Of a stretch of DNA of 64,000 nucleotides, positions 3,964 through 47,144 are shown piece after piece. This stretch comes from Flavobacterium sp. (GTDB lineage: Bacteria > Bacteroidota > Bacteroidia > Flavobacteriales > Flavobacteriaceae): assembly GCA_026390995.1 (NCBI GenBank), contig JAPLEX010000046.1, positions 13,829 through 77,828 on the forward strand. Reading direction: 5' to 3'. A program made the position numbers and the translations under genes. Each line of letters opens with the position of its first letter. Position 1 is the stretch's first letter. A model generated the notes under the pieces. It saw nothing but the letters and a program-made list of their open reading frames with translations. It made no database searches and was not told where the DNA came from.

Positions 3964-4917
3964 ATGAAAGTCTTAGCCAATGACGGAATTTCAACCAGTG
4001 GAATTCTTGCCTTAGAAAAAGGAGGATTTGAAGTGATCACTACCAAAGTGGCCCAAGAGCAAGTCGCCAATTACATCAACACACACCAAATTCCGGTCGT
4101 GTTGGTGCGTTCGGCAACCAAAATCAGAAAAGACATTATTGATGCCTGTCCGGGATTAAAAATAATTGGCCGCGGCGGTGTAGGCATGGACAACATTGAT
4201 GTAGACTATGCAAGATCAAAAGGCATACACGTAATCAACACACCTGCTTCCTCATCAGAAAGTGTCGCCGAATTGGTTTTTGCGCACCTGTTTTCAGGGG
4301 TACGATTTCTGCACGATTCCAACCGAAATATGCCTTTAGAAGGGGATCAAAACTTTGATGGCTTGAAAAAGGCCTACGCCAACGGCATCGAATTGCGAGG
4401 CAAAACCATAGGAATTATCGGCTTTGGTCGAATCGGACAAGCGACCGCCAAAATGGCTCTAGGATTGGGGATGCGCGTCATTGCAACCGACGGATTTGTT
4501 CCCAAAGCAACCATAAGTGTAGATTTTTACAACGGACAACAACTGGCTTTCGAAATTGAAACCATCGAAAAAGAAAACTTGTTGCAACAAGCTGATTTTA
4601 TTTCTTTACACGTTCCGGCGCAAAAAGATTATGTAATTGGCAACCCTGAATTTGAGCTCATGAAAGAATGCGTAGGAATAATCAATTGTTCGCGCGGCGG
4701 TATCATTGATGAAGTGGCCTTGATTGCGGCCTTAGACAGCGGGAAAGTATTGTTTGCAGGCTTGGATGTGTTTGAAAACGAACCCACACCCGAAATTCAA
4801 TTGTTGATGCACCCCAAAATCTCCATGACCCCACATATTGGGGCCGCGACACTTGAAGCCCAAGATCGTATTGGCACCGAATTGGCTCAACAAATCAAAG
4901 AGTTGATGGGTAACTAA
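3964..4917 (+). CDS. serA: D-3-phosphoglycerate dehydrogenase
   Basis: GRGGVGMDNID, GIIGFGRIG, SLHVP, NCSRGG, PHIGAAT; follows serC. Confidence 0.88.
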   Translation: MKVLANDGISTSGILALEKGGFEVITTKVAQEQVANYINTHQIPVVLVRSATKIRKDIIDACPGLKIIGRGGVGMDNIDVDYARSKGIHVINTPASSSESVAELVFAHLFSGVRFLHDSNRNMPLEGDQNFDGLKKAYANGIELRGKTIGIIGFGRIGQATAKMALGLGMRVIATDGFVPKATISVDFYNGQQLAFEIETIEKENLLQQADFISLHVPAQKDYVIGNPEFELMKECVGIINCSRGGIIDEVALIAALDSGKVLFAGLDVFENEPTPEIQLLMHPKISMTPHIGAATLEAQDRIGTELAQQIKELMGN

Positions 4918-4937
4918 TCCATTTCATACTACCGATT

Positions 4938-4965
4938 AAGCCAACAAAATTTGTTGGCTTTTTTT
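4938..4965 (+). terminator. Rho-independent terminator after serA
   Basis: AAGCCAACAA-aat-TTGTTGGCTT followed by a T-run. Confidence 0.8.
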
Positions 4966-5024
4966 ATGCAAATGAACCCCACTGAAAAGGCATATTCGCT
5001 ATATTTGTGTTGAATTTTCAAGCC

Positions 5025-5336
5025 ATGAAAAAACTTAAAGCCCGTTGGAATGTGCATTCCAATTTTCAACTCTTCGTTATCTTTGTTGTGTTTGCCCTCA
5101 CCGGCTCGGCATCTGCTTGGCTTTCTAGACCCTTGTGTGAAGTGTTGGGCATCTCAAAAGATTTGTTGTCCCATTGGTATACACCGGTGCGTTTACTGCT
5201 TATTTTTCCTCTATACCACGTTTTATTGGTAGCCAATGGGTTTATCTTTGGTCAATTCACCTTCTTTTGGAACTTTGAAAAGAAACTTTTGCGCAGCCTA
5301 AAACTGGGATTTTTACTGCCCAAAGAACCCCAATAA
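5025..5336 (+). CDS. Small membrane protein (DUF6787-like)
   Basis: KLKARW...IFVVFALTGS...FGQFTFFWNFEKK; TATATTTG box at 5000-5007 favours ATG 5025. Confidence 0.7.
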   Translation: MKKLKARWNVHSNFQLFVIFVVFALTGSASAWLSRPLCEVLGISKDLLSHWYTPVRLLLIFPLYHVLLVANGFIFGQFTFFWNFEKKLLRSLKLGFLLPKEPQ

Positions 5337-40567: not shown

Positions 40568-43006
40568 TTATTCCTTGGGTTCAACAGAGCTAAACCACGT
40601 TTTTCGTCTTTCGTAATATAATCCCAGAGCAATTAACACCAACATTCCTGCCGAACTGTACAAGGCAATGGTGCTTCCTTTTTGCACCACCTCGGGTTCA
40701 AACTTAAATTCAACGGTATGGTTTCCAGCTGGAATTTCGAGTGCACGCAATACATAATCTACGCGAATATGAGGCGTTTTCTTCCCGTCAATATAGGCGT
40801 TCCAGCCCTCTGCGTAATACATTTCAGAAAATACGGCTAGTCCTTTTTGGGCATTTTGTGATTGGTAACGAATGGCATTTGGTTTGTAATCGATCGCCTG
40901 AATACTTGCGGTACTATCTTTTGCGAATGAACGCTCTGTTAATAAAGTGCCAAACTCCGTTTTATTGACAATGGCGGTATTTTTGGAATCCAATTGGGGA
41001 AGCGCTTTCATCTCGGCATCGGCCGAATTCACCCACTTTACGGCTGAAACAAACCAAGCATTGCCATTGATGTCTGGGTTTTGCAGCGGCAATTCGTTGC
41101 CTTTCTCGTCGGTTTGGATGATGTATTTAACGTTGAGCATGTTCAAGACCTCCATGTTATTTTTGGTAATTTGATAATCAAACAACTGTTGCATGCGCCG
41201 TGGTTTGGCCGCATGATAGCCTCCAATGGAATGATGAAAATAAGAAGCGCGAGAACTTGATAGATTGCCGTCTACCTCAAACACACGATAGTGGGTGGTG
41301 TCTTGCAAAATTTGGCCATCGGCGGGGGTTTCTTGAAAGGGCATTTCTACTTCGCGAGCAGCCAAAAAATCATCGCCATTTACATAGTTTTTGTCGATAA
41401 AAAACAAATCGGCCACCACCAAAAAACCTACGGCAAGTACTGCTGTTTGAGAAGCCAATTTGTTTTTAAGGTAAAACCACAAGACGGCAGCAGCTGCAGC
41501 TATAAACACAAAAGAACGAAGTAAATCAGACTTAAATAACGAGCGTCTATCGGCTTTTAGTGCATTCATAAACTCTGGCCCATAACTTTTGGCATAAATA
41601 TCGTCGGCGCCTCCGGTGTAGGAAAAGAAACTTTTAGAAATAAATAAAAGCGATAATACTCCCAAAGCGGCAGCTGCTGACCACAGCAATCCTTTTTGCT
41701 GTTTCTCTTTATCAACCATAAAAAAGGCTTGAAAGCCCATAATAGCAAGCGCAGGCAAAGCCAATTCGAGTAATACTTGAATAGAGGAAACCGCACGGAA
41801 TTTATTGTATAGCGGCAAATTGTCGATGCAAAAATTGGTCAAAGCGGGAAAGTTTTTGCCCCATGATAGAAATAAGGACAGCAGTATTCCGACCAAAAAC
41901 GCGTATTTGATTTTGCGTTTATCCACAAATAAAGCCAGTAAAGCCAAGAAAAAAACCACCGCACCAACATAGGCCGGCGCAGCAACAATAGGTTGAACTC
42001 CCCAATATAAAGGCAAACTGTTGGCAAAATCGGCGGCTTGAGATTCCGGAACACCTTGACCTAAAACATACTCATAAGTTTTACTGTCTCTGCCCAACTT
42101 CTCGGCATTCGAGCCCCCAAACAAACGCGGCGCAATCAAATTAAAACTCTCGGCCAAGCCATAACTGTACTCCGTGATGTATTCGTGAGAAAGTGGGTTG
42201 TCATTGGCTATTTTTTTTCCCTCGGGCGAAATAGTCAATTCGCTTTTGCCGCGTGTAGAAAATTTGGCATATTCGGCAGTGGCCATCAAATTGGTGGCGT
42301 TGGCCCCTACTGCAAATACAACAGCAATTACAAAAACGCCCAACGAAATAAATAAGGGCTTGTATTCTTGTTGGCGAAAGTATTTCACAATAAAATAAAT
42401 CGTAAAAACCAACAAAAGCAAGATAAAATAATAGGTCATCTGAAAGTGATTGGCATTGATCTCGAGCGCAGCCGCCAACATAGTGAGAATTCCGCCCACC
42501 ACATAACGTTGACGCAAGACCAATAAAAACCCAGACAACAGCAATGGCATGTAGGCAATGGCATGGGCTTTGGCGTTGTGGCCTACTCCTAAAATGACGA
42601 TCAAATAGGTCGATAAACCAAAGGCCAAAGCACCAATAAAGGCTTTGAGCGGATCTATTTTTAAAACCAATAATAACACATAAAACCCTAGGAAATACAA
42701 GAACATATAATCAGCTGGACGGGGCAAAAAGCGCAAGAGATGATCTACTTGGCTGATGTATTCGTGCGGATAATTAGCGCCGAGTTGATAGGTAGGCATC
42801 CCGCCAAAAGCGGCATTGGTCCAATAGAGTTCGGCCTTATTCGCTTTTTTGTAGTCCAATTGTTCTTTGGCCATACCGGTGTATTGTACAATATCGGATT
42901 GAAATATTTTTTTGCCTTGAAGCAGAGGATAAAAAAAGAATAGTGCAAAACAAGCAAAGCCAACTAGAGCTAACAGATGCGGATAAAACGATTTAAATTG
43001 TTTCAT
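40568..43006 (-). CDS. YfhO family membrane protein (predicted GT-C-type transferase)
   Basis: QSDIVQY, WTNAAFGGMP, multiple TMs, GYHAAK, FSEMYY..GWNAYIDG..YVLRAL..HTVEFKF; CAAAAATA promoter box at 43035-43042. Confidence 0.85.
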   Translation of the reverse strand: MKQFKSFYPHLLALVGFACFALFFFYPLLQGKKIFQSDIVQYTGMAKEQLDYKKANKAELYWTNAAFGGMPTYQLGANYPHEYISQVDHLLRFLPRPADYMFLYFLGFYVLLLVLKIDPLKAFIGALAFGLSTYLIVILGVGHNAKAHAIAYMPLLLSGFLLVLRQRYVVGGILTMLAAALEINANHFQMTYYFILLLLVFTIYFIVKYFRQQEYKPLFISLGVFVIAVVFAVGANATNLMATAEYAKFSTRGKSELTISPEGKKIANDNPLSHEYITEYSYGLAESFNLIAPRLFGGSNAEKLGRDSKTYEYVLGQGVPESQAADFANSLPLYWGVQPIVAAPAYVGAVVFFLALLALFVDKRKIKYAFLVGILLSLFLSWGKNFPALTNFCIDNLPLYNKFRAVSSIQVLLELALPALAIMGFQAFFMVDKEKQQKGLLWSAAAALGVLSLLFISKSFFSYTGGADDIYAKSYGPEFMNALKADRRSLFKSDLLRSFVFIAAAAAVLWFYLKNKLASQTAVLAVGFLVVADLFFIDKNYVNGDDFLAAREVEMPFQETPADGQILQDTTHYRVFEVDGNLSSSRASYFHHSIGGYHAAKPRRMQQLFDYQITKNNMEVLNMLNVKYIIQTDEKGNELPLQNPDINGNAWFVSAVKWVNSADAEMKALPQLDSKNTAIVNKTEFGTLLTERSFAKDSTASIQAIDYKPNAIRYQSQNAQKGLAVFSEMYYAEGWNAYIDGKKTPHIRVDYVLRALEIPAGNHTVEFKFEPEVVQKGSTIALYSSAGMLVLIALGLYYERRKTWFSSVEPKE

Positions 43007-43082
43007 AAAAAGAAATCAGCTGAAAATTAATGCTCAAAAATAGGGAAAATAAAGCTGTAAAATAGGTGTAAAAAAAAGGCCC

Positions 43083-43343
43083 TTAGTCGACCTCTTCAAA
43101 ATCAATGTACTCGCCTACTTTTTGGGTAGATTTGGGCTTGGCGGCTGCCTGCGCAGTATCGGTAGCTTTTGAATTGCCTTGGTTTTGATTGGGTTGGGGA
43201 TTGCGCATATTTTCACTGGCCTTCTCCACCACCTTTTTTAACAATACAGGCAAAAACAAACGCGCCAAAAACTTGAACGCGTAATAAAATAAAATGATGT
43301 ACATCAAGGTGCGCAACAAACCAGTAAAAGAAGCCGTATCCAT
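43083..43343 (-). CDS. DUF4834 family small membrane protein
   Basis: N-terminal TM, low-complexity linker, C-terminal GEYIDFEEV. Confidence 0.8.
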   Translation of the reverse strand: MDTASFTGLLRTLMYIILFYYAFKFLARLFLPVLLKKVVEKASENMRNPQPNQNQGNSKATDTAQAAAKPKSTQKVGEYIDFEEVD

Positions 43344-43454
43344 GAATAAAATTTTTCCAAAATTACTAAATCACTTTGGGAATCTTTCTAAAATAAATGA
43401 TAAAAAACACTACTTTTGAAAGGCTTTTTTTTGAACCTTAATTTACTCGTTGCT

Positions 43455-44456
43455 ATGGTATCTCCCAATCGTTTTTTGTGGCTCTCATTACTTATTTATT
43501 CTGCTTCTTGGGCACAATTTACCGATGTCATCAATTCCAATAGACCGGGTCAGTCCATGGCAGCGTTTTCTGTGGGAAAAACGATTATTCAAACCGAAAT
43601 GGGTGTTGATGCCACCCGTGAAACCGATTCAAAAAAAGACTATCAGGTAGCCGGTATGGGTGGTGAAATTGTGGTGCGATACGGCGCCATTTTTGAACAA
43701 TTGGAGTTTTATGGCAGCGTGAACTACCAAAAGGAAACCTACACCGACTTAATCACCAACCTAGATAAAAAAAGCAGCGACATCCAAACCGCGCAAGTGG
43801 GTGCCAAATTTATGGTCTATGACCCCATGATGAATTACGAAGAAAAAATAAATAAATACAGTTGGAAAGCCAATCATAAATTCAATTGGCGCCAATTTAT
43901 TCCTGCCATCGCCTTGTATGGTGGTTTAAATATAAACAACGATGCCGAATTTTACAGACCTTTTCCAGTAGATCAAAAAAACACAACTGGATTAAAAGGT
44001 ATGCTACTCACCCAAAACCAGTTTGGCCGATTTGCCCTGATTACCAATTTTGGAATATCAAATTACGGGGTAGCCAATTACGAATCGGTGGATTATGTGA
44101 TCAGTTTGACACGGGGAATCAACGACCGCTGGTCCATATTGCTCGAAAACCAAGGCATGAACAGCAAAGTATATCACAACACTTTATTTCGTGCTGGAGG
44201 TGCCTATTTACTTGCCGAAAATTTACAAATTGATGCCGCACTTGCCAGCAGCGTAACCAACGTACCAGCTGTTGTAATTGCAAATATTGGCCTTTCTTGG
44301 CGTTTTGATGGCAATTATAGCGAAGTGATGTTGCGCAGCAATACTAAATCTAAAAGCAAGGACGAAAAATCAAAAGATAAAAAAGATAAAAAAGACGACT
44401 CTAAGTCCAAAGTGCGTACAGACGGCTTTGATAACAGTTCGCGCAAAACCAAATAA
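43455..44456 (+). CDS. Outer-membrane beta-barrel, Bacteroidota 'transporter' family
   Basis: NRPGQS..FSVGK..IQTEMG, alternating barrel strands, QIDA..GLSWRFD; TACTTTTG at 43411-43418 places the start at 43455. Confidence 0.65.
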   Translation: MVSPNRFLWLSLLIYSASWAQFTDVINSNRPGQSMAAFSVGKTIIQTEMGVDATRETDSKKDYQVAGMGGEIVVRYGAIFEQLEFYGSVNYQKETYTDLITNLDKKSSDIQTAQVGAKFMVYDPMMNYEEKINKYSWKANHKFNWRQFIPAIALYGGLNINNDAEFYRPFPVDQKNTTGLKGMLLTQNQFGRFALITNFGISNYGVANYESVDYVISLTRGINDRWSILLENQGMNSKVYHNTLFRAGGAYLLAENLQIDAALASSVTNVPAVVIANIGLSWRFDGNYSEVMLRSNTKSKSKDEKSKDKKDKKDDSKSKVRTDGFDNSSRKTK

Positions 44457-44459
44457 CCC

Positions 44460-45581
44460 ATGATTACCCTTCGCGAAGCCATTACCAAAAAAGAGCTGAA
44501 GCAATTTATCTTGTTTTCGTTTAATTTATACAAAGACAACCCCAATTGGATTCCGCCCTTAATTCAAGATGAATTAATCACCTTTGACAAAACCCAAAAC
44601 CCGGTTTTTGAAAACGCAGAAGCCTATTTTTACTGCGCCTACAAAGACGGGAAAATGGTGGGCAAAGTGGCTGCTATTGTCAATTGGAGTGAAGTCAAAG
44701 ACCTAGGTAAAAAGAAAGTCCGCTTCGGTTGGTTTGATGTGATTGACGACATCGAAGTGACCAAAGCCTTGCTCGAAAAAGTATACGAATTGGGTCGCAA
44801 ACACAACTTAGAAGAAGTAGAAGGACCCATGGGATTTTCGAATATGGACAAAGTTGGGTTGCTGACTGAAGGTTTTGAACACATCGGAACCATGATTACC
44901 TGGTACAATTACCCCTACTATGTAACGCATTTTGAACAACTGGGTTACGTGAAAGAAAAACAATTTTTAGAGAGTGTGTTTCCGTTTGCCAATGTGAAAC
45001 TCGAAGTATTTGAGCGCACCTCCCACTTTATTTGCAAACGCTACCAACTCCGGGTCGTGAATTGCAAATCGACCAAAGAGGTTCTGAAATACGCCGACCA
45101 AATGTTTGATCTGTTTAACGAATGTTACGCCAAATTGTCTTCGTTTGTTCCGATTTCAGCTGCCCAAAAAGAATTTTTCAAGAAAAAATACATGGGCATG
45201 ATCAACCCCGAATTCATCAATTTTGTATTTGACGCCAACGATAAAATGATCGCCTTCAGCATCGTGATGCCTTCCTTGACCGAAGCCCTAAAAAAGGCAA
45301 ACGGCCGTTTATTTCCGTTTGGCTGGTACCATTTGCTTCGGGCCAAAACCAAAACCAATGCCATCTTGTTCTACCTCATTGGCATTCATCCCGATTACCA
45401 AAATAAAGGCGTTACGGCTCCGATGTTTATCGAATACTTCAATGCTTTTAAACGATTTGGAATTGAAACTTGCATTCGCACACCCGAACTTGACGAAAAC
45501 AACGCCATCCACAATTTATGGAAGACCTTTGATCCGGTGATTCATAAGAGGAGATGTACGTATATGAAGAAGTTGGAGTAG
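44460..45581 (+). CDS. GNAT-fold N-acyltransferase, bacterial ceramide synthase (bCerS)-like
   Basis: LYKDNPNWIPP, VGKVAAIVN, RFGWFDVIDD, EGPMGFSNMD, TWYNYPYY, IGIHPDYQNKG, ELDEN. Confidence 0.7.
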   Translation: MITLREAITKKELKQFILFSFNLYKDNPNWIPPLIQDELITFDKTQNPVFENAEAYFYCAYKDGKMVGKVAAIVNWSEVKDLGKKKVRFGWFDVIDDIEVTKALLEKVYELGRKHNLEEVEGPMGFSNMDKVGLLTEGFEHIGTMITWYNYPYYVTHFEQLGYVKEKQFLESVFPFANVKLEVFERTSHFICKRYQLRVVNCKSTKEVLKYADQMFDLFNECYAKLSSFVPISAAQKEFFKKKYMGMINPEFINFVFDANDKMIAFSIVMPSLTEALKKANGRLFPFGWYHLLRAKTKTNAILFYLIGIHPDYQNKGVTAPMFIEYFNAFKRFGIETCIRTPELDENNAIHNLWKTFDPVIHKRRCTYMKKLE

Positions 45582-45716
45582 GTTGTCCGTTATCGGTTGT
45601 CGGTTATCGGTTTTCTGTTGTCGGTTAAACATAAAGTAATTAAGTATAATTAGAACAAATGAGTTCTCAGTATACTTTTTCAACTTTATGACTTTTGACT
45701 TTCGACTTTATGACTC
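45582..45716. repeat. Intergenic element: inward-facing heptamer arrays around an imperfect 36-bp palindrome
   Basis: Six GTTRTCG-like heptamers from the 45581 stop; AAGTATAATTAGAAC-aaatga-GTTCTCAGTATACTT (45642-45677); TTT(A)TGAC/TTTCGAC units up to the 45717 stop. Confidence 0.85.
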
Positions 45717-46976
45717 CTAAGAAACATCCACCGTAGTCTGAGCCGCAATAGTTTTATAGGTTCCATTGACCAATTTTTCGCGGATGGCTTCAAAGGCAGC
45801 CAAGGTTTCGTCGATGTCAGCCAAGGTGTGAGAAGCAGTTGGAATCATACGCAACAAGATAATTCCTTTTGGAATTACGGGGTAAACTACAATCGAAAGG
45901 AAGATGCCGTAGTTTTCGCGCAAGTCATTCACCATAATCATCGCTTCGGGAATGGATCCCTCCAGATATACCGGCGTAATACAGGTATTGGTGTCGCCAA
46001 TGTTAAACCCGCGGCTGGTTAATCCGTGTTGCAGGGCATGCACATTTACCCATAATTTATCTTTAATCTCAGATGATTTACGCAACAATTCCAAACGCTT
46101 TAACGACCCAATCGTTTGAATCATCGGCAAGGCTTTGGCAAACATCTGCGAACGCAAATTGTATTTCAAGTAATCAATAATGTCTTTGTCAGCGGCAACA
46201 AAAGCGCCAATGTTGGCCATTGATTTGGCAAAAGTCGAGAAATACACATCGATGCCGTCTTGGCAACCTTGCTCCTCACCTGCTCCGGCTCCTGTTTTTC
46301 CTAAGGTTCCAAATCCGTGTGCATCGTCAACCAACAAACGAAAATTGTATTTTTTCTTCATTTCAACCACTTCTTTCAATTTGCCTTGTTGGCCACGCAT
46401 CCCAAATACGCCTTCGGTAATAAACAAAATACCACCACCCGTAGTTTCGGCTAATTTCGTGGCACGCTGCAAATTTTTTTCCATGCTCTCCACATCGTTG
46501 TGGCGGTAGGTAAATCGTTTGCCGCTGTGCAAGCGCACGCCATCAATGATGCACGCATGCGCATCTACATCATAGACAATTACATCGTTTCGCGTAACCA
46601 AGGCATCGATGGTAGATAAAATTCCTTGGTACCCAAAATTCAATAAATAAGCCGATTCTTTCATCACAAAAGCAGCCAATTCTTGCTCCAATTGTTCGTG
46701 GTATTCAGTATGCCCACTCATCATGCGCGCACCCATCGGATAGGCTGCTCCATATTGGATAGCCGCATCAGTATCGGCTTGACGCACTTCGGGGTGATTG
46801 GCTAAGCCCAAATAATCATTTAAACTCCAGTTCAATATATTTTTGCCTTGAAATTGCATTCTCGGACCTAATTCTCCTTCTAATTTGGGAAATACAAAAT
46901 AGCCCTCAGCTTGAGAAGCCCATTTTCCTAGCGGTCCTTTATTGTTCTGAATGCGTTCAAATAAATCTTTTACCAT
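45717..46976 (-). CDS. PLP-dependent alpha-oxoamine synthase, probably cysteate acyl-ACP transferase (SulA/CapB type, capnine synthesis)
   Basis: GYFVFPKLEG, NWSLNDYLGLANHP, PMGARMMSG, DDAHG, STFAKS; start at ATG 46976; promoter box at 47022-47029. Confidence 0.7.
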   Translation of the reverse strand: MVKDLFERIQNNKGPLGKWASQAEGYFVFPKLEGELGPRMQFQGKNILNWSLNDYLGLANHPEVRQADTDAAIQYGAAYPMGARMMSGHTEYHEQLEQELAAFVMKESAYLLNFGYQGILSTIDALVTRNDVIVYDVDAHACIIDGVRLHSGKRFTYRHNDVESMEKNLQRATKLAETTGGGILFITEGVFGMRGQQGKLKEVVEMKKKYNFRLLVDDAHGFGTLGKTGAGAGEEQGCQDGIDVYFSTFAKSMANIGAFVAADKDIIDYLKYNLRSQMFAKALPMIQTIGSLKRLELLRKSSEIKDKLWVNVHALQHGLTSRGFNIGDTNTCITPVYLEGSIPEAMIMVNDLRENYGIFLSIVVYPVIPKGIILLRMIPTASHTLADIDETLAAFEAIREKLVNGTYKTIAAQTTVDVS

Positions 46977-47144
46977 GGCGAATGTTGTGAATAATAGGGT
47001 TGTAATCCTTGAATTTAGGCGCAAAAATAGGGCTAAAAAAGCAAAGCAAAAAAACTTTGACTAAATAAATATTCACAATTAAAGCGACTCAATTGTTGGC
47101 ATCTAAATTGGGTATGTATCTTTGCAAACAAAAATTCAAAACGC

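Follow-up and report, generated by a model that had tools for sequence, protein, structure and literature searches.

The locus examined here lies in a 64,000-nucleotide stretch of a Flavobacterium sp. contig (JAPLEX010000046.1; the window, below, is this whole stretch) and contains two genes that face each other tail to tail. One encodes a 373-aa GNAT-type acyltransferase (44460..45581, + strand) and the other a 419-aa alpha-oxoamine synthase (45717..46976, - strand); between the two convergent stop codons lies a spacer of 135 bp, read directly from the sequence and assigned to neither strand (45582..45716). Homology and active-site residues identify the synthase as a cysteate-C-fatty acyltransferase (CFAT, also named CapB or SulA), and the tandem GNAT of the bCerS/YghO family is our best candidate for the N-acyltransferase of capnine or 3-ketocapnine. 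On balance, we consider it reasonably probable that the pair encodes the first committed enzyme and, as the most probable role of the GNAT protein, the last enzyme of sulfonolipid synthesis. The motifs that the preliminary description, made from the letters of the window, had quoted for the two convergent genes are all present: RFGWFD (residues 88-93), GPMGFSN (122-128) and YNYPYY (149-154) in the 373-aa open reading frame (ORF), and GYFVFPKLEG, PMGARMMSG and STFAKS in the 419-aa protein. The CFAT ORF spans 45717-47024 (- strand), with a TTG at 47024 upstream of the ATG at 46976 that gives the 419-aa product. By alignment, the ATG at 46976 and not the TTG is the start, because CFAT, taken from its residue 2, is in register with the crystallised Capnocytophaga ochracea enzyme from its residue 1 on.

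The identity of the synthase follows from several comparisons. Against all PDB sequences, it scored 712 bits to 28eh (C. ochracea CFAT, CapB) and 577 bits to 7u7h (Alistipes finegoldii SulA), whereas the best serine palmitoyltransferase (SPT) reached 233 bits and Kbl 199 bits; against the NCBIfam models of SPT, Kbl, BioF and ALAS, every score remained below two thirds of the curated cut-off. Its overall identity to the C. ochracea CFAT (COCFAT) is 74%. The 2026 COCFAT structure paper describes ten residues within 4 Å of the adduct of pyridoxal 5'-phosphate (PLP) and cysteate, and all ten are identical in the window CFAT, with a position offset of +1 relative to COCFAT (N53, F114, G115, Y116, H140, C142, H220, T248, K251, and K281). 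Two of these are the lysines discussed by Radka et al., who assigned the binding of PLP to Lys251 of SulA and noted that its Lys281 is an alanine in SPT; in the window CFAT, K251 sits in STFAKS and K281 in QMFAKAL. By homology, then, the synthase is an orthologue of CapB/SulA/CFAT and a true cysteate-C-fatty acyltransferase. The preference for SulA/CapB over SPT expressed in the preliminary description thus holds, and the synthase does not cluster with BioF, Kbl, or SPT, the outcome that would have spoken against that description.

The remainder of the genome (2.16 Mb, 94% complete, and among named genomes closest to metagenome-assembled genomes of freshwater Flavobacterium) indicates which substrates could be available to the GNAT protein. 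It encodes three alpha-oxoamine synthases, namely CFAT, a Kbl (706 bits, above the cut-off) and a BioF-like protein, and no SPT was found in it. A gene for cysteate synthase CapA is present at C35:2527-3552, scoring 626 bits to NF053679 at a cut-off of 600. Given CFAT and CapA without SPT, (keto)capnine should therefore be the only sphingoid-type amine that the cell makes. A CerR-type reductase was likewise not found in this genome, CerR-like neighbour queries giving about 50 bits at best, and the published 3-ketocapnine reductases are short-chain dehydrogenases, not CerR-type enzymes. In genera other than Flavobacterium, CFAT has a capA-like PALP gene on its far side; the two other loci of the same genus that were sampled (L006, L007) show no CapA-like gene beside CFAT. 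As a separate observation, the CapA gene adjoins an oligopeptidase B gene (C35:529-3552), as in the genera where both flank CFAT, and the block is split here, with CapA on contig C35 and CFAT on another contig.

Pfam and NCBIfam scans of the 373-aa GNAT protein returned no match at E 1e-3, a relaxed scan gave marginal matches (E 1e-3 to 1e-2) to PF00583 (Acetyltransf_1) and PF13508 (Acetyltransf_7), and a sequence search of the PDB yielded a chance match to neurolysin and nothing else. An AlphaFold2 model built with 118 diverse homologues (pLDDT 96.7, pTM 0.92) has as its top Foldseek matches the tandem GNATs 2wpw, 5kf1, 7q3a, and MshD (E down to 4e-15, TM about 0.6, 9-15% identity). Judged from this model, the protein is a two-domain tandem GNAT without a close solved relative, and the label GNAT rests on the fold because the family scans give no firm match. 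At residues 299-369, a family profile picks up the GNAT motif A/B region, and the acyl-CoA motif A is recognisable in the C-terminal domain (YQNKGVTA, residues 313-320), where G317 is kept in 98% of family members; the N-terminal domain holds the family motifs with the strongest conservation (G68-R/K69, G122-P123, and Y149/Y153/Y154). The three GNAT motifs quoted above fall on columns that are at least 85% conserved in 62 family members (G90, G122, P123, Y149, Y153, and Y154) and are therefore family signatures rather than chance matches. No transmembrane or signal peptide-like segment is predicted in the protein.

Its family is established by alignment with E. coli K-12 YghO, which covers residues 4-372 of 373 at 27% identity (E 2e-39); a search of the window's own genome with YghO has the GNAT gene as its sole significant match. 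In Padilla-Gómez et al. (PMC9386255), yghO/ECD_02850 is given as homologous to Caulobacter CC_1154, the acyl-CoA N-acyltransferase that acts in ceramide synthesis, and the E. coli BL21 homologue is placed inside the spt-acpR-epi sphingolipid cluster. The Caulobacter enzyme, bCerS, has been described as a peripheral protein on the cytoplasmic face. On this homology, the GNAT protein is a bCerS/YghO-family member, connected to the Caulobacter enzyme via YghO, and its first description as bCerS-like is borne out by the full-length relationship.

The two genes keep company well beyond this genome. In a sample of 80 named Flavobacterium species, 78 loci were long enough to judge adjacency, and in 73 of these CFAT is convergent with and at most 2 kb from the GNAT gene; F. 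johnsoniae CI04 has the pair convergent within 2 kb, with one small ORF between and the GNAT gene at 4001-5116 of locus L079; its equivalent in strain UW101 is the convergent gene two ORFs from Fjoh_2419. A family-wide sample comprised 301 Flavobacteriaceae genomes, one per genus. For the 85 genera with coordinates listed for both genes, the orientation is always tail to tail, with a distance below 1 kb in 67 and of no more than 8 kb in 77. CFAT is present in 293 of the 301 genera and the GNAT gene in 276; 274 have both, 19 have CFAT only, two have the GNAT gene only (assemblies 77% and 87% complete), and six have neither (Fisher p = 4.5e-6). The GNAT gene is missing in 6 of the 8 genera without CFAT versus 6.5% of CFAT-bearing genera, which indicates that the two genes tend to be lost together. 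A probable Capnocytophaga genome, from a lineage of known producers, has a CFAT 83% identical to the C. ochracea enzyme and was the only probable congener of it to turn up among the sampled genomes; it has the GNAT gene. In a sister family (f2), the gene is present in all three genomes that have CFAT. In lake metatranscriptomes, contig fragments match both genes at 97-99% identity, which hints that both are transcribed; the pieces are short and uninformative on operon structure. Arrays of 7-bp repeats fill the spacer at 45582-45716, with GGTTGTC/GGTTATC in its left part and GACTTT-type units in its right part, and a simple scan of it found no canonical intrinsic terminator.

We also placed the family in a phylum-wide sample of 401 Bacteroidota genomes, in which SPT was called with NF047600 at E at most 1e-120. 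The bCerS/YghO family occurs in 384 of these genomes, CFAT in 152, and SPT in 310, and no SPT was called by NF047600 in the genomes of the window's own family. The family is thus near-universal in Bacteroidota, most of its members pair with SPT, and it is not sulfonolipid-specific; the idea that it is confined to sulfonolipid makers was rejected on these counts. Among genomes with neither CFAT nor SPT, the family gene is missing in 8 of 17, versus 9 of the 384 that have one of the two synthases (Fisher p = 3e-8, shared ancestry ignored).

A family tree of 62 sequences, for which 60 loci were pulled, resolves three clades. Clade A holds the window GNAT with support 100/100, clade B unites YghO with genes that follow spt immediately and in the same orientation, as seen in more than 25 genomes, and clade C is a long branch confined, in this sample, to CFAT-bearing genomes of other orders. 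Some gene contexts of clade A are informative. Genome G063 has a compact spt-cerS-cerR layout: the clade A gene shares 4 nt with a true SPT gene, which scores 674 bits and exceeds the curated cut-off, and after the clade A gene comes one for a CerR-type reductase of the NAD-dependent epimerase family. Such contexts imply that clade A enzymes act on the products of alpha-oxoamine synthases, and wherever the gene context is informative, clade A proteins are predicted lipid N-acyltransferases tied to a long-chain-base synthase. Six further loci from two other lineages (L025-L028, L042, and L043, in G216, G096, G168, G068, G199, and G215) carry a conserved cluster of a GT2/GT21 glycosyltransferase, a clade A GNAT, a short-chain dehydrogenase, a FabA-like dehydratase, a ketoacyl synthase (KAS), and an acyl carrier protein (ACP); in G199 and G215, the cluster is preceded by genes for an SPT-like protein and a CerR-type reductase. 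The cluster has the appearance of a self-contained route to a glycosylated, ceramide-type lipid that has its own dedicated acyl chain.

Within clade A, a subclade of 25 sequences (A3), all from CFAT-bearing genomes, was considered as a dedicated CFAT/sulfonolipid group; we do not claim it, as its support is moderate (85/89), and an SPT-like gene lies 1 kb away from two of its members. The clade C genes (L058-L065, in G183, G087, G103, G175, G007, G107, G039, and G001) encode proteins of about 390 aa with 22-30% identity and are usually the sole family member of their genomes. No conserved lipid genes were found around clade C members, and the clade C gene could be the sulfonolipid N-acyltransferase of its own lineages. 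In one of these genomes, true SPT and CFAT genes lie 1.5 kb apart on opposite strands (G107:C3:207852-211758), so that a single locus in this organism may supply bases of both the ceramide and the sulfonolipid type.

The absence of SPT from the genome and from its whole bacterial family, the conserved adjacency to CFAT, and the joint loss with CFAT together back the assignment of the GNAT protein as the (keto)capnine N-acyltransferase, which we regard as a well-founded, testable prediction from sequence and gene context. In the pathway we propose, CapA, encoded elsewhere in the genome, would provide cysteate, which CFAT would condense with the thioester of an iso-branched fatty acid, yielding 3-ketocapnine, and a ketoreductase of the short-chain dehydrogenase type would reduce this to capnine. 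The soluble tandem GNAT would then move a second acyl chain, from acyl-CoA or acyl-ACP, to the C2 amine of capnine or 3-ketocapnine, and the product, an N-acyl-capnine (sulfobacin-type lipid), would be destined for the outer membrane. What is inferred is which amine is acylated, which thioester donates the acyl chain, and whether acylation or reduction comes first: acylation precedes reduction in the Caulobacter model and follows it in the CapC model.

Several observations weigh against this assignment and hold our confidence at a level only somewhat above even, among them the CFAT-bearing genera that lack the gene, the distribution of clade C and of SPT-only genomes, the convergent orientation, the conserved block, and the tighter linkage to an outer-membrane protein gene. 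The 19 of 293 CFAT-bearing Flavobacteriaceae genera noted above have no detectable family member, although the assemblies of most of those listed below reach 99% completeness or more; such genera would either make free capnine only or use an unrelated acyltransferase. (Genomes of these genera include G091, G115, G409, G428, G442, G443, G461, G464, G470, G477, G511, G533, and G587.) Among CFAT genomes in the phylum-wide sample of the same class and other orders than that of the window, 40 of 54 have a weak best family match (E 1e-14 to 1e-47), all eight genes of this group included in the tree belong to clade C, and 5 of the 54 have no family member at all. Clade A also occurs in many genomes with SPT and without CFAT, as a second paralogue without conserved lipid context, and Alistipes-like genomes, which have both SPT and CFAT, have the spt-adjacent clade B gene only. 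Furthermore, the tie to Caulobacter bCerS is indirect, through YghO, and the convergent orientation means that adjacency cannot reflect co-transcription. Seemingly unrelated genes (YfhO-like, DUF4834, oligopeptidase B, and YbaB) share the conserved block, so that the synteny could in part reflect a gene order that was inherited. In the window, positions 40568-43343 carry the genes for a YfhO-like membrane protein of 812 aa and a DUF4834 protein of 86 aa, which are families F3 and F4 of the conserved Flavobacteriaceae block.

One alternative is that the protein is a bCerS-family acyltransferase acting on another amine, such as an amino lipid, a polyamine, or a cell-envelope intermediate, and has CFAT as its neighbour through the conserved block only. 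We consider this unlikely, though the most probable of the alternatives. The unrelated genes of the block and the CFAT-bearing genera without the gene fit it, as do clade A paralogues that lie away from spt in CFAT-less genomes and two genomes (G031, G119) that have a clade-A-level match with neither CFAT nor SPT at the thresholds used. Against it stands the absence of the GNAT gene from 6 of the 8 genera without CFAT, and the sole family members with a clear operon context pair with an alpha-oxoamine synthase; moreover, one candidate amino lipid already has its enzyme, ornithine lipid synthesis in F. johnsoniae being assigned to Fjoh_0833/OlsF.

A different partner for the GNAT protein is suggested by the gene upstream, which encodes an outer-membrane beta-barrel protein (OMP) of the PF13557 'MetA-pathway of phenol degradation' family (43416..44456, + strand; Pfam E 2.2e-16). 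Both genes are on one strand, the OMP stop codon 3 bp before the GNAT ATG, and they probably share a transcript; the YfhO-like and DUF4834 genes lie just upstream of the OMP gene on the opposite strand. An OMP homologue (family F2) precedes the GNAT gene in 78 of the 80 named Flavobacterium loci and in every Flavobacteriaceae locus of the sample, including L015-L017, from which CFAT has moved away, so that the GNAT gene is linked more tightly to this barrel than to CFAT, the last of the points that count against the assignment. This layout could indicate that GNAT and OMP form a module for handling or modifying an outer-membrane lipid or hydrophobic compound unrelated to sulfonolipid. We hold this to be quite improbable: the OMP pairing is limited to Flavobacteriaceae, whereas relatives elsewhere lie beside spt, cerR, ACP, KAS, or GT21-type glycosyltransferase genes, and the GNAT protein is predicted to be soluble, without signal peptide-like or transmembrane segments. 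Since sulfonolipid is itself an outer-membrane lipid, this alternative may also complement the (keto)capnine N-acyltransferase assignment. A functional tie of the OMP gene to sulfonolipids is conjecture drawn from gene order. At the speculative end, the OMP might be a dedicated partner that receives or inserts the N-acylated sulfonolipid, in a 'make and deliver' module, with the clade C paralogues as the sulfonolipid N-acyltransferases of other CFAT-bearing orders; we give this extended scheme little weight.

That the GNAT protein is instead an ordinary small-molecule or protein acetyltransferase, as the NCBI name 'GNAT family N-acetyltransferase' and the use of acetyl-CoA by the best Foldseek matches might suggest, or has a role in nucleotide metabolism, as the name 'GTP cyclohydrolase' in many NCBI records of its homologues would, is highly improbable, since these structural matches are remote, the full-length relatives are YghO and spt-linked proteins, the fold is that of a tandem GNAT, and no GTP cyclohydrolase family matches the protein in the Pfam/NCBIfam scans. 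The 'GTP cyclohydrolase' name appears to be a propagated misannotation, without family or fold support.

Sulfonolipids are major outer-membrane lipids of gliding Bacteroidota. They induce rosettes in choanoflagellates, and those of gut Alistipes and Odoribacter act on TLR4 signalling; the N-acyl chain sets the bioactive sulfobacins apart from free capnine. The sulfonolipid enzymes characterised in the literature are CYS/CapA, CFAT/CapB/SulA, and KCR/CapC, and the 2024 ketocapnine reductase paper presents a four-step pathway of which it identified the third step. For the N-acylation step, no enzyme is named in the searchable full-text literature, including the 2023 review, the 2024 reductase paper, the 2024 Nature Communications paper, and the 2026 paper on the CFAT structure, subscription-only papers lying outside the search; this agrees with the remark in the preliminary description that the step was not known to be firmly assigned. 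As the candidate is found in most Flavobacteriaceae, including the genetically tractable F. johnsoniae, the question is directly testable, and the candidate would permit full heterologous reconstruction of the sulfonolipid pathway. If the assignment is true, the bacterial ceramide synthase family was recruited to a sulfonated base.

Among known systems, the window CFAT is closest to COCFAT (28eh) and SulA (7u7h), with the ten pocket residues kept, K251 and the SulA-specific K281 among them, and with no difference of note apart from the displacement of capA from capB in this genus, here to another contig beside oligopeptidase B. For the GNAT protein, the two-domain architecture is shared with 2wpw (clavulanic-acid pathway), 5kf1 (glucosamine N-acetyltransferase), 7q3a (MAB_4324), and MshD (mycothiol synthase); these enzymes use acetyl-CoA on soluble substrates, and the likeness is structural and remote. 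GlsB/OlsF resemble the proposed role in that, within the same phylum, they carry out the fatty N-acylation of an amine to give a membrane lipid; however, they belong to the OlsB-type family (annotated as hemolysin-like), which the window GNAT does not match, and their substrates are glycine or ornithine rather than a long-chain base.

The bCerS proteins (CC_1154/CCNA_01212; YghO/ECD_02850) provide the nearest comparison. Like the window GNAT, they are soluble proteins of about 370-390 aa, alignable over their full length (27% identity to YghO), and bCerS/YghO share with it G68-R/K69, G122-P123, Y149, Y153-Y154, P271, G282, G317, and N347. Both bCerS relatives and the window GNAT are encoded beside an alpha-oxoamine synthase, and the predicted chemistry, N-acylation of a long-chain 2-amino base, is the same. 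The two nevertheless differ in several respects: YghO and the spt-adjacent Bacteroidota genes form clade B, whereas the window GNAT belongs to clade A; the spt-linked relatives lie downstream of their synthase in an operon, whereas the window GNAT is convergent with its own; and bCerS systems pair with a CerR-type reductase, of which none was found in the window's genome. Finally, the partner of bCerS is SPT and that of the window GNAT is CFAT, so that the base acylated by the window protein would bear a C1 sulfonate in place of the hydroxyl.

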